Below, in pieces: positions 2,179 through 51,514 of a DNA stretch of 51,514 nucleotides. Origin of the DNA: Nitrospirota bacterium. GTDB taxonomy: Bacteria; Nitrospirota; Thermodesulfovibrionia; Thermodesulfovibrionales; JdFR-86. The notes beneath the pieces were generated by a model, which saw only the letters and a list, made by a program, of their open reading frames with translations, did not search any database and was not told where the DNA came from. Within the stretch, counting starts at the first letter, position 1. Each line of letters opens with the position of its first letter. A program made the translations under genes and the position numbers. The stretch covers positions 1 through 51,514 of the forward strand of contig JARRNG010000020.1 in assembly GCA_037385265.1 (NCBI GenBank), read 5' to 3'.

Positions 2179-2710
2179 TGGCTATCCTCAGCTCCCTGTA
2201 GACATAGTGAAGTCCCGAGAACATCACGAGCGCCGTGGTCAGCATTATAAGCGGTCTGTACAGGCCGGGCAGAATGCCGAAGTTCTTGTAAAGCAGGATG
2301 TAGCATATGAGAACGAATTGCGTGAATATGGCGGCCTTGCCGAAGACCGAAGGGTTCACGACCATCCTCCGGGTGGAAAAATACACTGCCATCCATCCCG
2401 CGACCACCATGAGGTCCCTGCTTATCACGATTATCGTGAGCCACGTGGGCAACCAGCCGAAATAGGCATAGAAGACGAAAGAGGTTATCAGCATGAACTT
2501 GTCGGCCAGGGGGTCGAGGATGGCCCCCAGGGCGGTCTTCTGGTGCTTGAGCCGGGCGATCAGCCCGTCGAGCCCGTCCGAGAGCGCGGCGGCGACAAAC
2601 AGATAGAGGGCAACGTCTGTCCTCCCGTACTGAAGCGCGATGACGAAGGCCGGTATTAGGACAATCCGGAGCACGGTAAGGGAGTTGGGAATGTTAAGGA
2701 CCATCTTCAT
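2168..2710 (-). CDS. pgsA: CDP-diacylglycerol--glycerol-3-phosphate 3-phosphatidyltransferase
   Basis: CDP-alcohol phosphatidyltransferase motif DGLDGLIARLKHQKTALGAILDPLADK, with multiple TM segments. The track ORF runs to 2866. I chose the internal ATG at 2710 (MKMVLNIPNSLTVLR) because the upstream TPR gene ends at 2757. Confidence 0.85.
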   Translation of the reverse strand: MKMVLNIPNSLTVLRIVLIPAFVIALQYGRTDVALYLFVAAALSDGLDGLIARLKHQKTALGAILDPLADKFMLITSFVFYAYFGWLPTWLTIIVISRDLMVVAGWMAVYFSTRRMVVNPSVFGKAAIFTQFVLICYILLYKNFGILPGLYRPLIMLTTALVMFSGLHYVYRELRIASGK

Positions 2711-2756
2711 TATGCTGATACCTCGCTGGCCGGGTGAGGGCTCGCTCAACCTCGGC

Positions 2757-3821
2757 TCAGGGTATCTCCATGGGGATCGACTTGACCCCCGGGAGCCTGA
2801 GCCCAAGTGTATTATAACAGCCGGGGCGTGGCCTCTCCTCGACGACGGCAAGGAGGGCGCGGGCATGACAGTGCTCGACTTTAAAACCCCTCTCCCTGGC
2901 CTGTTCCGCGGCCGAGCGAGCCAGTCTTGCCGCTTCAGCCTTCCTGCTTCCTAGGTATTTCAGTTCCGCAAACCCGAGGTTACAGTATATGATGCCCCGG
3001 GGGTCCCTGGTCTTCCTGAAGTGGAGCAGGGCGTCCCTAAGGTATCTCTCCGCAAGGCGGTTCCTGCCCTGGGCCATGTGGGTCTTCCCCATGCTCCAGA
3101 GGGTGTACGAGTAGCTTACGATGTCGCCCATGCCCCTGTAGAGAGCGATGGCGCGCCGGAAATGCGCCTTGGCCCCTTCGAGGTCTCCCTGCATCCTCAG
3201 GGCGTTTCCTATGCCGCAGTGGGAATAGGCGGTTCCGAAAGTGTCCCTCAGGCGCTTGAAGAGCCCGTTGGCCTTCTCGTAGTAGTTCAGGGAATCCTTG
3301 AAGCGCCCCCTCACGCGGCTCGAGCCGCCCATGCCGCAGAGGCAGTACCCCACCCCGTGGTCGTCGCCGAGCCTTTCGAAGGCCTTCCCGGCAGTTCTGA
3401 AGGTCTTGAAGGCCTCTTTGATGTCGCCCTTTATGCGGAGTGTGCCGGCCAGGGCCCACTGGGTAAAAGCCGTCCCCTCGCGGTCGCCCCCGCGGGAGTA
3501 AGAGGCGCGGGCCTTCTTGAGAAGCGGCATGGCCTTTCTCCAGTCACCCAGGGCCCTTCGCGCGAGGGCGAGCCCCACCGTGGCATCCAGGGCCGCCACG
3601 GCGTCGCCGGACTGCCGGGCCGACTTCATGGCGCGCTCGTAGTATTTCGAGGCCTCGACGAAGTCGCCCACCATGCGGGAGGTGTCGGCCACGGCGAGGA
3701 GGCAGCGCAGCCTGCCCTCTCCGCGGCTCCCCCTCAGGCACTGCCTGTAGAGGGCTATGGCGTCGCGGTACTTCGAGCGTTTCCTGAAGGCTTCGGCCCG
3801 CGCGAAGGCGTCCTCATTCAT
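2757..3821 (-). CDS. tetratricopeptide (TPR) repeat protein
   Basis: 354-aa ORF with reiterated ~34-aa A/Y/G-patterned repeats (e.g. ALYRQCL, YYERAMK, YYEKANGLF, HFRRAIALY). Confidence 0.7.
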   Translation of the reverse strand: MNEDAFARAEAFRKRSKYRDAIALYRQCLRGSRGEGRLRCLLAVADTSRMVGDFVEASKYYERAMKSARQSGDAVAALDATVGLALARRALGDWRKAMPLLKKARASYSRGGDREGTAFTQWALAGTLRIKGDIKEAFKTFRTAGKAFERLGDDHGVGYCLCGMGGSSRVRGRFKDSLNYYEKANGLFKRLRDTFGTAYSHCGIGNALRMQGDLEGAKAHFRRAIALYRGMGDIVSYSYTLWSMGKTHMAQGRNRLAERYLRDALLHFRKTRDPRGIIYCNLGFAELKYLGSRKAEAARLARSAAEQARERGFKVEHCHARALLAVVEERPRPGCYNTLGLRLPGVKSIPMEIP

Positions 3822-4476
3822 CGAGATTCTTTCTAACCTCCCGTACCAGGGCCTTGTAGTCTCCGGAGCCGTAGAACGCCGAGCCCATCACCAGTATCTC
3901 CGCCCCCGCCTCGACGGCCTGGCGGGCGTTGCCGGGCTTGATTCCGCCATCGACCTCTATCTCGGGCGGACTTTCGAGCCCCTTCGCCTTTATCATGTCC
4001 CTGAGCTGCCTGAGCTTATCCAGCGCATGGGGGATGAAGGACTGTCCGCCGAAGCCGGGGTTCACCGACATGATGAGCACCAGGTCGACGTCTTGGATGA
4101 TGTCCTCCAGCGTGGAGACGGGCGTCGAGGGATTTATCGATACCCCCGCTTTCACGCCGAGCTCCTTCATCTGCTGGACCGTCCTGTGGAGGTGAACCGA
4201 CGCCTCCTGGTGAACGGTCAGGTAGCTGGCGCCGGCCTTCGCGAAATCCTCTATGTACCTATCGGGTTCCACTATCATGAGGTGCACGTCCAGCGGCAGC
4301 CCCGTGCACTTCTTCACGGCCGACACCACCGGCGGCCCTATGGTGATGTTGGGGACGAAACATCCGTCCATGACGTCAACGTGGATGATGACGGCCCCGG
4401 CCTCCTCGGCGGCCCTGACCTCCTCGCCGAGCCTCTCGAAGTCCGCCGACAGGATGGATGGCGCAATCTTAATCAT
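3814..4476 (-). CDS. rpe: ribulose-phosphate 3-epimerase
   Basis: MIKIAPSILSADF, HVDVMDGCFVPN and MSVNPGFGGQSF motifs. 220 aa. Confidence 0.92.
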   Translation of the reverse strand: MIKIAPSILSADFERLGEEVRAAEEAGAVIIHVDVMDGCFVPNITIGPPVVSAVKKCTGLPLDVHLMIVEPDRYIEDFAKAGASYLTVHQEASVHLHRTVQQMKELGVKAGVSINPSTPVSTLEDIIQDVDLVLIMSVNPGFGGQSFIPHALDKLRQLRDMIKAKGLESPPEIEVDGGIKPGNARQAVEAGAEILVMGSAFYGSGDYKALVREVRKNLDE

Positions 4477-5182
4477 AGCTTTCGACCTCGCTGAATTTAA
4501 GGTATAAGATGTCTCCGGATGCTATTTGCCGGCCGGGGAGCGGCTTCTGCTCCTCAACTACCGACGCGGCCTCCGGCGCTTCGAGCTCCACGTTCAGGCC
4601 CAGCTCCCGTGCCAGCATGAGCGCATCGTCCTTGAGAAGCCCTATGAACGATGGGCAATAGTACACGACCGGATAGGGGCCGAGGCTCGCAAGGAGGGTA
4701 ATGCCCTGGCCTGTCCATTTTTCGGGAATGGGAGATTGGGCTATGACTGTCCCCTTCTCCACAGTGTTCGAGTGCACCTCCACGACCTTCACTTCCAGGC
4801 CCTCCCTGGTGAATAGCTTGAGGGCGTCGTCGAGCTTTTCTCCGACCGCGTCAGGAATCTTGGTGACCGCTGGCCCCTTGCTTACCAACACCTTTATCTC
4901 CGCCATGCCCTTTATGTCCGTGCCCGGCGGGACGTCCTGGCTGATGATGTGTCCCTTCGGTATGCCGGCGTCGTTTTCCTCTCCCAGGACCTTGAGATAG
5001 AGACCCCTGCCTTCCAGGGCCCTGTCCGCCTGCGTAAGGTCCATTCCCGTCCGATCGGGCTCTTCAACGGTCATGCGGGTTATCATGACCCTGTAGGTCA
5101 GGAAGGCCGAGCCTCCGAGCAGCGCGGCGAAAACCGCTACATAGACGGCGGGCCTGAGGAACCTCTTCATCCATTCCTTCAT
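4469..5182 (-). CDS. membrane-anchored PASTA-domain protein (no kinase domain)
   Basis: N-terminal TM helix (AVYVAVFAALLGGSAFL), then about three PASTA-like repeats (e.g. GHIISQDVPPGTDIKGMAEIKVLVSKGP; GTVIAQSPIPEKW). Confidence 0.7.
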   Translation of the reverse strand: MKEWMKRFLRPAVYVAVFAALLGGSAFLTYRVMITRMTVEEPDRTGMDLTQADRALEGRGLYLKVLGEENDAGIPKGHIISQDVPPGTDIKGMAEIKVLVSKGPAVTKIPDAVGEKLDDALKLFTREGLEVKVVEVHSNTVEKGTVIAQSPIPEKWTGQGITLLASLGPYPVVYYCPSFIGLLKDDALMLARELGLNVELEAPEAASVVEEQKPLPGRQIASGDILYLKFSEVESYD

Positions 5183-11744: not shown

Positions 11745-12560
11745 CTATCCCCCATGACTGAATCCCGGGAAGAGTGTCATGCCGCCGTCAACGAAGAGCG
11801 AGGTGCCCGTCACGTAGTCCGACTCGTCCGAGGCCAGCCAGACGGCGGCCGCGGCGATGTCCTCCGTCTCCCCGACCCTCCTGTAAGGGATAAGCTCAAG
11901 GAGTTTGGCCTCCGCCTCCGGCGTCTCCCAGGCCGATCTGTTGATGGGGGTCTTGATGGCCCCGGGAGCGATGCTGTTGACGCGTATCTTGCGCGGCGCA
12001 ACCTCCTGGGCGACGCTTTTCATCAGAAGCATTATGCCGCCCTTCGACGCGGCGTAGTTGGCGTGTCCGGCCCAGGGTATGACCTCGTGAACGGAGCTGA
12101 CGAAGATTATCTTCCCGGCCGAGAGGGAGCGGCTCGGGTCAGCCCCGCGCCTGATGAACTCGCGGGCGGCTTCGCGGGCGCAGAGGAAGGCGCCGGTGAG
12201 ATTAACTCCTATCACCTTCCGCCACTGTTCGATGGTCATCTCCTCAAAGGGCGAGTCCTCCTGGAGCCCGGCGTTGCACACGGCTATGTCGACCGTTCCG
12301 AACTCCTCTACGGCGGCTTTGAACATAGCCTTTACTTCATCCTCGTCGCTGACGTCGGCGCCGACCGCTATAGTCTCTCCGCCGTTTTTCCTGATATTGG
12401 CGACTATCCTTTTGGCGGCCTCGGCTTCGGACCTGTAATTGACCGCCACCGCCACGCCCTGGGCGGCCAGCGCCCTGGCGATGGCCTCGCCAATGCCCGA
12501 GCTCGCTCCTGTTACCACCGCCGCCTGGCCTCTCAGGGGTCTTCTCTCAAGGTTGTCCAT
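11745..12560 (-). CDS. SDR-family oxidoreductase (glucose 1-dehydrogenase-like)
   Basis: TGASSGIG cofactor loop, NAG, and the catalytic YAASK motif. 271 aa. AAGGAGG Shine-Dalgarno. Confidence 0.88.
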   Translation of the reverse strand: MDNLERRPLRGQAAVVTGASSGIGEAIARALAAQGVAVAVNYRSEAEAAKRIVANIRKNGGETIAVGADVSDEDEVKAMFKAAVEEFGTVDIAVCNAGLQEDSPFEEMTIEQWRKVIGVNLTGAFLCAREAAREFIRRGADPSRSLSAGKIIFVSSVHEVIPWAGHANYAASKGGIMLLMKSVAQEVAPRKIRVNSIAPGAIKTPINRSAWETPEAEAKLLELIPYRRVGETEDIAAAAVWLASDESDYVTGTSLFVDGGMTLFPGFSHGG

Positions 12561-49360: not shown

Positions 49361-50536
49361 ATGGGGTTAGCGCCTTCAAAGAGGACAATCCTGCGCGGCC
49401 GCGCGTGCTCCACGGTCTTCCGCATTTGTCCGGACGCCTATCTCGTTGGCGGCTACCTGAGGGACCTGTCGAGGGGAGGGCCGCGTTCAAAGGACATTGA
49501 TTTCATCTTCGCCGGGGATTTCCACGGCCTGTCGGTCGCGGTGGCCAGGGAGCTCGGGGGGAAGGTGGTGGAGCTCAAGGCCGAGACACTTACGAGGGTC
49601 GTCCTCCCGGGAGGCAGGACCATTGATTTTTCCAGGATGGAGGGCGATATATTGAATGACCTCGGCGGCCGGGACTTCACGATGAACGCCATGGCCTGGT
49701 CGCCCAGGGGAGGCTTTTTAGATCCCTTCAGAGGTCTCAGGGACATTGACCAGGGGATAGTAAGAGCCCTGTCCGCGGAGAACCTGCGAGCCGACCCGGT
49801 GAGGCTCGTCAGGGCATACAGGTTTTCCGCCGAGATGGACTACGCCCTTGAGCGCCGGACCCGCGCCATGATTAGGGACCTCGCCGGCAGCCTGGAGAGG
49901 GCCGTAAGTGAAAGAATTACTTTAGAGTTTTTCAAGCTCCTCAATGCCGACGCCCCCTGGAAGGCTCTGGGCATGGCCCTCTCCGACGGTCTCCTCAGAA
50001 AGATAATTCCGTTATCTATCAAGCAGTTGCATTCCAACATTAAATCTATTTCAAATCTTGAACGTAACATTCAGAAATTACATGAAATTTCCCACATGAG
50101 GGAATTCTCCCAAGGCCTCAGCGTCAGGGGCCTCCTGAGGCTTGAGAGGCTCATGGTGGGCGCTGGCAGTCTGCCCGGGAGGCTTTCCCTGAGCAACGAC
50201 ATTGCGAGAAGGCTCGAAGCCTGCCGGCGGTTGTATGCCGCATTTAAGAGGGCCGATGCGTCGGACCTTCACGCGCTGTTTGAGATATTCCATGAAGCTG
50301 GCGAGGCCTCCTTCGACATAGTGGTGATTGCCGGAAGGATGGAACTCATGGGGGAGTTAAAGCGATTTCAAAGGATTAGCGGAAAACCCCTTATAAGCAC
50401 GGAAGAGGTGATGGAGATAACCGGGGTAGGCGGTGGGCCTAAACTCGGGCGGATTCTGAAGGACCTGGCGAAGCACAGGTTCAGTCGAGACATCAGGGGC
50501 CGGCGCGATGCGACGAGGTGGCTTTCGGCACAATAG
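49361..50536 (+). CDS. CCA-adding enzyme / poly(A) polymerase-family tRNA nucleotidyltransferase
   Basis: LVGGYLRDL...KDIDF head-domain motif, GRDFTMNAMA, and RAYRFS. Confidence 0.8.
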   Translation: MGLAPSKRTILRGRACSTVFRICPDAYLVGGYLRDLSRGGPRSKDIDFIFAGDFHGLSVAVARELGGKVVELKAETLTRVVLPGGRTIDFSRMEGDILNDLGGRDFTMNAMAWSPRGGFLDPFRGLRDIDQGIVRALSAENLRADPVRLVRAYRFSAEMDYALERRTRAMIRDLAGSLERAVSERITLEFFKLLNADAPWKALGMALSDGLLRKIIPLSIKQLHSNIKSISNLERNIQKLHEISHMREFSQGLSVRGLLRLERLMVGAGSLPGRLSLSNDIARRLEACRRLYAAFKRADASDLHALFEIFHEAGEASFDIVVIAGRMELMGELKRFQRISGKPLISTEEVMEITGVGGGPKLGRILKDLAKHRFSRDIRGRRDATRWLSAQ

Positions 50537-50640
50537 GGTTATCAGAATCAGCGGGCTTTATTATAGACAGTCGTTTAAAAAAGCCGTATAAATAGCAGAA
50601 ATCGCTGAAGTCGTTTGCAGATAAGCTAATCAAGCAAGCC

Positions 50641-51224
50641 TGTCAATGAGCGAAAGGGGAGGCCAAATTGACAATACAAGCACGGAGAAGATAGGATTAC
50701 TACTTTACTACTGTAAAGGAGAAAAGTTTCCTAATGATCACGAAACAAATACTGTTAAAGACCTTTATTATAACCGTTGTTGCAACCTTTTGTGTTTTCC
50801 TACTGGTTCTTACATTTAAGCTCAATGAAATGATAGCATTTGGTTCAGCCATCCCCATAGCAATAGTACTAATATGGCTGATCAATAAAGTAATTAAACG
50901 TACTTAATTCCACAGAACATGTCGTATTTGAAAGAGGGCGTCAAGCTAACGAGCTAGGGACAAAAATGTAACGACGCCTAGGGCGATAAAAAGGCCAGAG
51001 AAGCAGAAAATATACAATAAATCACGCGACATAATTTCGACATAATATACCGTATTTGAATCAGAGTGTCAATGAGAGAAGAGGGCGACCCAAATTGACA
51101 GTGCGTAGCACGAGAGGATAAAATTACTACTTTACCATTGTAAAGGCACTAATATGGTCGATTAATAAAATAATAAAGCATCCTTAGTTTCACAGAATAT
51201 CTCGTATTTGGAAGAGGGTGTCAA
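50641..51224. repeat. tandemly duplicated promoter/small-ORF cassette (copy A 50641-50944; degenerate copy B 51044-51224)
   Basis: Both copies share TGTCAATGAG..AAATTGACA, ATTACTACTTTAC..TGTAAAGG, and ACTAATATGG..CACAGAA.AT.TCGTATTTG.AAGAGGG.GTCAA. Copy B lacks ~147 nt of the ORF body. Confidence 0.7.
50734..50907 (+). CDS. 57-aa hydrophobic small membrane peptide (candidate type I toxin)
   Basis: Not on the ORF track. AAAGGAG lies ~12 nt upstream. Translation is MITKQILLKTFIITVVATFCVFLLVLTFKLNEMIAFGSAIPIAIVLIWLINKVIKRT, with two hydrophobic segments and a basic tail. Preceded by TTGACA-N18-TAGGAT (50668-50697). Confidence 0.45.
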   Translation: MITKQILLKTFIITVVATFCVFLLVLTFKLNEMIAFGSAIPIAIVLIWLINKVIKRT

Positions 51225-51386
51225 TGTGAAGATGAGTGCACTTACTCCTAAATCGAAAAAACATATGATATTTTATAGAGAAGAAATGCCCAAACTTGAT
51301 GGGTGATACTAAAATCGGCGTATTAAGACCATAGAAAATTCAGTCAGTGCTAAAGATGGTTTGGATAATATTCGGAAGAGGACTGT

Positions 51387-51514
51387 ATGCCTAATCGCAA
51401 GATATTAACAGATTATGATAAGAAGATTGATGATTTTAAGAACTTTACGGTGCGTGTCAAGGGTTTGATTGAACAACTAATTAGCGAAGCTGGAATCAAA
51501 CTTCATTCGATAAC
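51387..51514 (+). CDS. RelA/SpoT-domain (small alarmone synthetase / toxSAS-like) protein, 5' fragment running off the window
   Basis: MPNRKILTDYDKKIDDFKNFTVRVKGLIEQLISEAGIKLHSI matches the N-terminal pattern I recall for stand-alone RelA_SpoT proteins: Y-x-x-x-x-x-x-F, then a helix, then I-K/N-x-H-S-I. Only 42 codons are visible. Confidence 0.45.
   Translation, partial: MPNRKILTDYDKKIDDFKNFTVRVKGLIEQLISEAGIKLHSI

Follow-up and report, generated by a model that had tools for sequence, protein, structure and literature searches.

Is the small hydrophobic peptide gene near the right end of contig JARRNG010000020.1, from the Nitrospirota bacterium assembly GCA_037385265.1, one half of a type I toxin-antitoxin (TA) pair? 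The window analyzed here is the entire contig, 51514 nucleotides (nt) long, and close to its end lie two related cassettes. Cassette A holds an intact gene for a 57-residue peptide, which we call pepA, and cassette B holds the stump of a paralog, pepB. In both, a predicted rightward promoter precedes the gene and a predicted leftward promoter faces it from behind the stop codon. A reading made from the letters alone, without database searches (hereafter the sequence-only reading), had taken this arrangement for a candidate type I locus with a decayed duplicate. We followed it up with database searches and with sibling contigs from the same metagenome series, which were retrieved by exact-protein look-ups and carry L numbers below. 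For the reading in which the two cassettes are paralogous modules of a type I TA-like kind we put the probability at roughly 45%. The region as a whole is best explained as the left margin of a small islet, a mosaic of toxin-like or defence-like units that are each self-contained.

Cassette A begins with an inverted repeat, TGTCAAT-N19-ATTGACA (50641..50673), whose right arm is the -35 box of a sigma-70-type promoter, TTGACA-N18-TAGGAT (50668-50697, plus strand, matching consensus at 10/12 positions). Repeats of the form TGTCAAT-N19/20-ATTGACA occur twice in the window and in none of 100 shuffles, which confirms what the sequence-only reading had noticed. The predicted 5' untranslated region (UTR; 50704..50733, plus strand) carries the Shine-Dalgarno (SD) sequence AAAGGAG at 50715-50721. 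Its minimum free energy fold contains two small hairpins, CTTTAC/GTAAAG and AGGAGA/UUUCCU, the latter covering the SD; this SD-pairing element lies just before the AUG in A, and the equivalent pairing in B is weaker. The pepA open reading frame (ORF) follows at 50734-50907 (plus strand) and is intact in every contig seen. Promoter, ribosome-binding site and ORF are thus placed as originally described. The peptide is strongly apolar over residues 10-28 and 33-50, with a grand average of hydropathy of 1.52 and a basic C-terminus, NKVIKRT. An AlphaFold2 model is all-helix over residues 2-56 (predicted local distance difference test score 83) and shows one long helix, leaving the choice between a hairpin and a single span unsettled. 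The small, hydrophobic and duplicated character claimed for the peptide therefore holds, and to it can be added that the peptide is C-terminally basic and restricted to one lineage.

Cassette B has the same layout. Its left end is the inverted repeat TGTCAAT-N20-ATTGACA (51067..51100), its rightward promoter is TTGACA-N18-TAAAAT (51095-51124, plus strand, 11/12), and alignment to intact copies identifies the last 13 codons and stop of pepB at 51146-51187 (plus strand; ALIWSINKIIKHP*). Where the window has this stump, L001, L003, L004 and L024-L026 have an intact 57-residue pepB, with apolar stretches at residues 10-28 and 32-50 and the tail NKIIKHP. By comparison with them the window lacks exactly 147 nt, comprising the SD, the start codon and 44 codons, while both promoters remain; the loss of about 147 nt with some 13 codons left, as first estimated from the window by itself, was therefore exact. 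The deletion junction lies at 51145-51147, and because it shares only 1-2 nt of microhomology the deletion is not a k-mer assembly artefact. L007, a contig of a public metagenome-assembled genome, has a separate deletion of 302 nt that removes the same start region together with the repeat behind copy B. Two independent deletions, of 147 nt in the window and 302 nt in L007, have thus each taken away the SD and start of copy B. Judged by these alignments, pepB in the window is an inactivated, deletion-derived module.

The intact copies of pepB allow the parts of the two cassettes to be compared. The peptides, 57 residues each, are 58% identical, and at the nucleotide level identity between A and B alternates along the cassette: 82% in the inverted repeat with the -35 box, 44% in the promoter spacer, 87% from the -10 box to the SD, 33% in the linker between SD and ATG, 72-88% in the ORF, and 86% in a 37-nt element behind the stop codon. 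Since both spacers are near saturation (33-44%), the conservation of the other blocks appears to be due to selection and not to recent duplication or gene conversion. The promoter hexamers are kept in A, in B and in the L010 allele, whose 18-nt spacer is variable, and the SD, the start codon and the 57-codon length are the same in both paralogs. Over the 171 nt of the paralog ORF there is no indel and no stop, and 66% of permuted sequences gain a stop. Differences fall 19/9/13 by codon position, the second position being the most conserved, and hydropathy is kept between the paralogs (p=0.04). Because residue identity is no higher than in a permutation null, the constraint on the protein looks like one to 'stay hydrophobic'. 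The third codon positions of the ORF are 77% identical versus 40% in the spacers (Fisher p=0.0009), which points to constraint at the nucleotide level and would fit a functional complementary RNA made from the same DNA. Codons 34-49 of pepA (50833..50880), 88% identical to the paralog at the nucleotide level and holding a CAGCCAT...ATGGCTG stem, are a candidate region for sense/antisense contact. An antisense ORF of 50-61 residues is also open in both paralogs (window 50700-50885 and L003 2938-3090, both minus strand). We rejected it as coding, because most changes fall at its own second codon positions and the replacements are radical.

The 37-nt element behind the stop codons, here called the P element (consensus GTTCACAGAATATATCGTATTTGAAAGAGGGTGTCAA), reads on the minus strand as a promoter, TTGACA-N17-TATATT-CTGTGAAC, and in both paralogs the opposing start is predicted about 2 nt past the stop. 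Copy A of the element (50908..50944, minus strand) is TTGACG-N17-CATGTT-CTGTGGAA, with boxes at 50944-50916 and a predicted transcription start site (TSS) at about 50909, 2 nt beyond the pepA stop. The leftward box that had been proposed here is present, though it matches consensus at only 8/12 positions. Copy B (51188..51224, minus strand; TTGACA-N17-GATATT at 51224-51196) matches at 10/12, and both copy B promoters stand as first proposed; in the sibling contigs with an intact pepB its -10 box is TATATT, which raises the match to 11/12. Between them lies a further copy (51036..51072, minus strand), whose boxes, TTGACA-N17-TATATT at 51072-51044 (11/12), are the best promoter match of the region and lie 128 nt to the right of copy A's opposing promoter. 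Its -35 box had been recorded simply as a 'further' TTGACA at 51067-51072; the box is there, as part of a full promoter. In 50537-51514 as a whole we counted 11 promoter-like sites, versus 3.2 +/- 1.4 when this AT-rich DNA was shuffled.

The repeat seems confined to this locus. A 22-nt string, CGTATTTGRANNAGRGYGTCAA, occurs three times in the window and in none of 100 shuffles, and the 51-kb window has no other copy of the P element. Where the 22-nt repeat was matched in genome, metagenome and viral collections, the matches were isolated, due to chance and without the flanking consensus. The repeat is, as far as these searches reach, lineage-specific.

If the cassettes work as type I modules, a short mRNA would be made from the sigma-70-type promoter, its SD partly buried in a 5' hairpin, and would encode a 57-residue membrane peptide. 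The conserved promoter on the opposite strand would start an RNA about 2 nt beyond the stop codon, and behind copy A the stronger promoter 128 nt further right, at 51072, could contribute by read-through. Such a leftward RNA would have full complementarity to the 3' portion of the peptide mRNA, and possibly to the whole of it, and may limit peptide synthesis through duplex formation and degradation. Once the antisense RNA fell, the peptide would enter the membrane and the cell would be arrested or killed. We favor this reading because the locus matches both the feature list of membrane type I toxins and the convergent 3' overlap seen in yonT/SR6, and because synonymous-site constraint, the ORFan distribution of the peptide, the repeated loss of the copy B start and a toxin-rich neighborhood all fit it.

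A number of findings pull the other way. The P element closes every unit of the islet, units of unrelated genes included, and the same repeat would drive other leftward products, a putative 28-residue peptide gene (pep28) and a non-coding element of about 430 nt, both described below. Sequence comparison thus indicates an opposing promoter that is common to the whole islet and not necessarily there on the peptide's account; what had been described as an antisense promoter is indeed conserved, convergent and placed about 2 nt past the stop, and it is an islet-wide 37-nt repeat rather than a peptide-specific signal. At 8/12, copy A of the element is below the threshold of our promoter scanner, so the weakest version of the repeat lies behind the copy of the gene that is always intact. 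A scan of the region found no terminator-like sites on either strand, and folding energies are ordinary both for the antisense stretch (z = -0.38) and for the whole pepA mRNA (z = +0.70). Neither the scan nor the folding supports the discrete antisense RNA of 100-200 nt that had been predicted. The pepA peptide has two apolar segments, not one, and the identity of its residues to those of the paralog does not exceed the permutation null. Finally, a single population is the source of all the sequences, which leaves the comparison with no independent evolutionary replicate.

Searches for relatives of the peptide returned its paralog and nothing else of note. When 1.84 billion representative proteins were searched exhaustively with phmmer, the paralog was the sole match, and a word-indexed search across 5.8 billion clusters returned nothing beyond the query. 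The peptide had no match in Pfam, NCBIfam, PHROGs or PADLOC, the best Pfam E-value (0.015) belonging to an unrelated domain of unknown function, and no relative was found in phage genomes, plasmids or viral contigs. None of the known type I and type V toxin families in Pfam and NCBIfam (Hok, Ldr, Fst, TxpA, GhoT and others) reached its cut-off, in keeping with the earlier remark that the peptide was of no recognizable family. By these searches pepA and pepB are an ORFan pair, as type I toxins typically are, and not subunits of a conserved complex; with the paralog as the only relative among 1.84 billion proteins, the idea that the peptide belongs to a larger conserved membrane complex, which would have undone the sequence-only reading, can be set aside. 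Rfam gave no match in the window at the gathering threshold, and nothing meaningful in the sibling loci at E<=1.

Among known systems, the locus would work most like the type I loci with 3' overlap, among which bsrG/SR4 and txpA/RatA are convergent in the same way as yonT/SR6. In the last of these, from Bacillus subtilis, a 58-residue toxin is paired with an antisense RNA of 100 nt overlapping the 3' end of yonT, as described in PMC5848175. Shared with such loci are a peptide of fewer than 60 residues with a basic C-terminus and its own promoter, an opposing promoter past the stop, and a setting in variable, horizontally acquired DNA. Membrane type I toxins are characterized as hydrophobic, helical peptides of fewer than 60 residues with cationic C-terminal residues (PMC8309996), and the pepA peptide has the size, the hydrophobicity, the predicted helix and the cationic C-terminus of that description. 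The toxins in this 2021 review have one transmembrane domain, the phrase 'two transmembrane' being absent from its text, and are described only in Proteobacteria and Firmicutes (PMC8309996). The locus differs from the 3'-overlapping loci in lacking sequence similarity to a toxin family, in its two apolar segments, in having no predicted terminator for a short antisense RNA, in drawing its opposing promoter from a shared repeat, and in its Nitrospirota-like host. To our knowledge membrane-peptide type I modules have not been described in Nitrospirota. If the modules work as proposed, they would represent a new two-segment toxin family and extend membrane-peptide type I TA systems to this phylum. 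A type I module here would not surprise a specialist, and, with its functional steps predicted from DNA sequence, it changes no major open question.

Three further comparisons bear on the peptide. GhoT, a type V toxin of 57 residues with two predicted membrane helices, has the same length and the same two-segment hydrophobic architecture as the pepA peptide. Unlike GhoT, however, the peptide matches no Pfam family beyond noise even at E<=10, the islet has no gene for a GhoS-like RNase, and the control element here would be an RNA. In zor/orz the small RNA gene is divergent and pairs with the 5' UTR, whereas the candidate RNA here is convergent and one copy is deleted in some strains. The likeness lies in the duplication: zorO-orzO/zorP-orzP are presented as duplicated chromosomal type I loci in PMC3919570, and here too the whole candidate toxin-plus-RNA unit is tandemly duplicated and the copies have diverged. 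The peptide also resembles class II phage holins, those with two transmembrane domains, in being small with two hydrophobic segments and a charged C-terminus. We rejected a phage holin, as the islet holds no endolysin or other phage gene, and the peptide has no PHROGs match and no relative in phage or viral contigs.

Between pepA and pepB lies a unit of 128 nt, which carries pep28 (50946..51032, minus strand), a hydrophobic ORF of 28 residues (MSRDLLYIFCFSGLFIALGVVTFLSLAR) with a single apolar stretch at residues 5-27. Its predicted start lies some 5 nt past the TSS predicted for the strongest copy of the repeat, which would make it nearly leaderless. In L066, a locus whose CCA-adding-enzyme protein is 90% identical, the visible 16 codons and stop of pep28 are in frame; 7 codons are identical, 4 synonymous and 6 conservative, and the differences by codon position are 7/1/5. 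There the pep28 unit adjoins the CCA flank directly, at GTCAA, and the pepA cassette is missing. The 128-nt unit is probably a gene on this comparison. We also considered it as a decayed or inverted peptide cassette and rejected this, since local alignment was no better than with shuffles on either strand; for the same reason the inverted repeat of the unit (I1) is attributed to chance.

The islet in which these units lie is cut off by the contig end. GC content is about 0.60 up to the end of the CCA-adding-enzyme/PolyA_pol gene (49361-50536), the left neighbor, and about 0.46 or lower beyond it; the window thus holds the left part of an AT-rich, strain-variable islet (50537..51514). The right border, a minus-strand mtaB gene, is visible only in sibling contigs. 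Going by how homologues of the CCA enzyme and of MtaB are named, the host would belong to Nitrospirota/Thermodesulfovibrionales. The whole islet is a mosaic of 2.7-5 kb between the CCA-enzyme gene and mtaB, complete in L024 and L002, and no tRNA or tmRNA genes lie at its borders. Two layouts were found. In variant 1 pepA, the 128-nt unit and pepB are followed by a gene for a 363-residue RelA/SpoT protein, convergent with a conserved minus-strand element of about 430 nt, and then by mtaB. In variant 2 (L002, L070 and L071) pepA is followed by a trypsin-like protease gene convergent with the same ~430-nt element, and then by genes for a 252-residue secreted protein, a 223-residue HEPN-like protein and a 134-residue ORF before mtaB; a second copy of the ~430-nt element, 74% identical, precedes the 134-residue ORF. 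The two variants split exactly after ...GTCAA, at window position 50944. Contigs L059-L061, which stop just past the CCA gene, were considered as alternative islets and rejected, being strain splits at the level of single-nucleotide polymorphisms.

In three related species (L065, L067 and L062+L068), whose CCA proteins are 69-74% identical, the islet is absent and the empty site measures 310-330 nt. Each empty site holds one well-conserved copy of the promoter element, P'. Because there is a single such copy in each, comparison of the sites indicates that the repeat family is descended from a native intergenic promoter.

How much of this could be explained otherwise? It is unlikely, in our judgment, that pepA and pepB encode ordinary small membrane proteins, for instance accessory or immunity factors, made without antisense control while the repeats are relics or serve other products. 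Such proteins would suit a locus whose best repeat copy (51072-51044) directly fronts pep28 and not an antisense RNA, whose copy A repeat is degenerate in the -10 box, and whose pepA, intact throughout, gives no sign of counter-selection; in L002 a repeat also stands behind the 252-residue gene, where only a relic of about 45 nt from the end of a peptide cassette is found. The repeat of cassette B is harder to reconcile with them, as it would drive only pepB antisense RNA (its one ORF has 10 residues) and yet reaches 11/12 wherever pepB is intact; nor would they account for 86% conservation of the repeat between paralogs against 33-44% in neutral spacers, or for the constrained synonymous sites. 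A very unlikely alternative makes pep28 the real toxin, with the pepA transcript or its read-through as convergent antisense partner, or with mutual repression of two convergent genes. The size and single apolar stretch of pep28 are those of a classic type I toxin, its promoter is the strongest and its start nearly leaderless, the substitutions in L066 (7/1/5) are of coding type, and its stop codon lies 38 nt from that of pepA. The two units are nevertheless separable, L002 having pepA but no pep28 and L066 pep28 but no pepA; the comparison behind pep28 covers only 16 codons of one relative, and cassette B would be left unexplained, as it contains no partner of the pep28 kind. We think it scarcely probable that the ORFs and promoter-like boxes have no function and simply arise as by-products wherever foreign DNA is AT-rich. 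DNA of this kind does yield many promoter-like matches and T-rich hydrophobic ORFs, the antisense ORF is open in both paralogs as well, and amino-acid identity is not above the null; but the excess of promoter-like sites over shuffles, the block-wise conservation beside saturated spacers and the SD, start codon and 57-codon length common to both paralogs would all be unaccounted for, and the antisense ORF, with its second-position changes, does not behave as a coding frame.

The remaining alternative concerns the repeat more than the peptides, and it can hold together with the type I reading. The 37-nt repeat, which has GTCAA at its end, may be mainly the junction where units enter, leave and replace one another, its promoter look being secondary and the peptide genes cargo with a promoter of their own; the exchange would be due to a trans-acting site-specific enzyme or to homologous exchange between repeat copies. 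As the principal account of the locus we hold this to be improbable, though several observations favor it: at 50944, exactly after GTCAA, L002 switches from pepA to the protease unit, and the pep28 unit of L066 meets a different left flank at GTCAA as well; in total, three independent junctions fall at GTCAA. All repeat copies have the same orientation, the first site (50641-50646) has only TGTCAA in common with the repeat, in the manner of an attI or attB site, exchange between ~430-nt elements could turn a variant-2-like array into variant 1, and the site is empty in three related species. The likeness to integron arrays and to clusters of attC sites lacking integron-integrases (CALINs) extends to direct-oriented repeats at the 3' ends of units, strain-to-strain exchange that falls precisely on the repeat's end, a first site reduced to the core, and cargo rich in toxin-like or unknown small genes. 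An attC site is an imperfect palindrome of 57-141 nt at the 3' end of a cassette, with an R'' core of RYYYAAC and an R' core of GTTRRRY. Here the core is GTCAA, attC cores and a palindrome are lacking, no inverted TTGAC partner lies within 150 nt upstream and there is no integrase nearby, and on these grounds we rejected an integron. Indeed no recombinase-type Pfam family was found in either complete islet variant or in the gene calls of the 10 kb upstream, the rest of the window not having been scanned. In contrast to integron sites, the repeat is a well-formed promoter, with complete and correctly spaced -35 and -10 boxes, and it stops precisely where the -35 hexamer does. Related species have one native copy in their empty site, and further copies are lacking from the 51-kb window, from representative genomes and from metagenome and viral collections. 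The pentanucleotide TTGAC, found on the minus strand before the units, had also suggested an element like IS200/IS605 (a palindrome-associated transposable element), which is not supported because end hairpins and a transposase are lacking and the window holds no dispersed copies. A bolder version, which we regard as quite doubtful, is that the islet is an undescribed promoter-delimited cassette array, in which the repeat acts both as the signal for leftward RNAs or peptides and as the junction at which toxin and defence units (membrane peptides, a toxic small alarmone synthetase, a protease and a HEPN-like protein) are put together and exchanged. In this version the repeat, descended from the native cca-mtaB intergenic promoter, would work with no integron integrase or attC. 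Were it true, one portable promoter would supply each rightward effector with a leftward RNA partner.

The wider islet is a compact natural case in which toxin-like and defence-like units pile up at one site through a shared promoter repeat. Its variants are clear-cut, comprising the empty site, both full layouts and the two deletions, and they suit the study of how a locus is built and lost.

Several neighboring genes look like defence genes. The window ends within the RelA/SpoT gene, of which it holds the first 42 of 363 codons (51388..51514, plus strand; full gene at L003 3345-4436). The protein matches PADLOC model PDC-S33 (1e-19) and, over its full length, phrog_9640; its N-terminal half resembles small alarmone synthetases and is followed by a C-terminal extension of about 150 residues, and there is a weak match to a 373-residue RelA/SpoT structure (7ztb). 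It is a possible single-gene defence protein of the toxic small alarmone synthetase (toxSAS) kind. Within its first codons is a leftward promoter-like site close to consensus, TTGACA-N16-TAAAAT (11/12; window 51460-51433, minus strand), from which an RNA would be antisense to the 5' end of the RelA/SpoT gene. In L002 the protease, 252-residue secreted protein, 223-residue and 134-residue genes lie at 833-1588, 2596-3354, 3472-4143 and 4695-5099 (-), respectively. The trypsin-like protease matches Lamassu LmuA and the protease models of retrons and defence-associated reverse transcriptases (DRT), and the 223-residue protein has a weak HEPN-type match.

Copies of the ~430-nt element lie at L024 1821-2262 and at L002 1672-2110 and 5100-5440, all on the minus strand. 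The same promoter repeat stands in front of it, it is convergent with the RelA/SpoT or the protease gene, and it ends in a 12-bp terminal hairpin. We rejected the ORFs inside it as coding, given 38% amino-acid versus 74% nucleotide identity. It has no Rfam, phage, plasmid or viral match. Compensatory changes occur in 10/102 predicted pairs, in a comparison of only three sequences.

Between the mtaB stop and P' is a stretch of about 130 nt (L024 2265-2420; L065 3057-3210; also L067 and L068, reverse strand) that is more conserved across species than the flanking proteins. It shows no covariation and no Rfam match, and holds a tandem TTTGTAAT(A/G)T motif. Lastly, the contig end L007 (GCA_037385325.1) tracks the window to its final base (…CATTCGATAAC) and then continues for 90 nt into unrelated GC-rich DNA (12000-12089). 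This tail, which has no match in the window or in any fetched locus, is either a misjoin or the mark of a strain in which the remaining islet is deleted.

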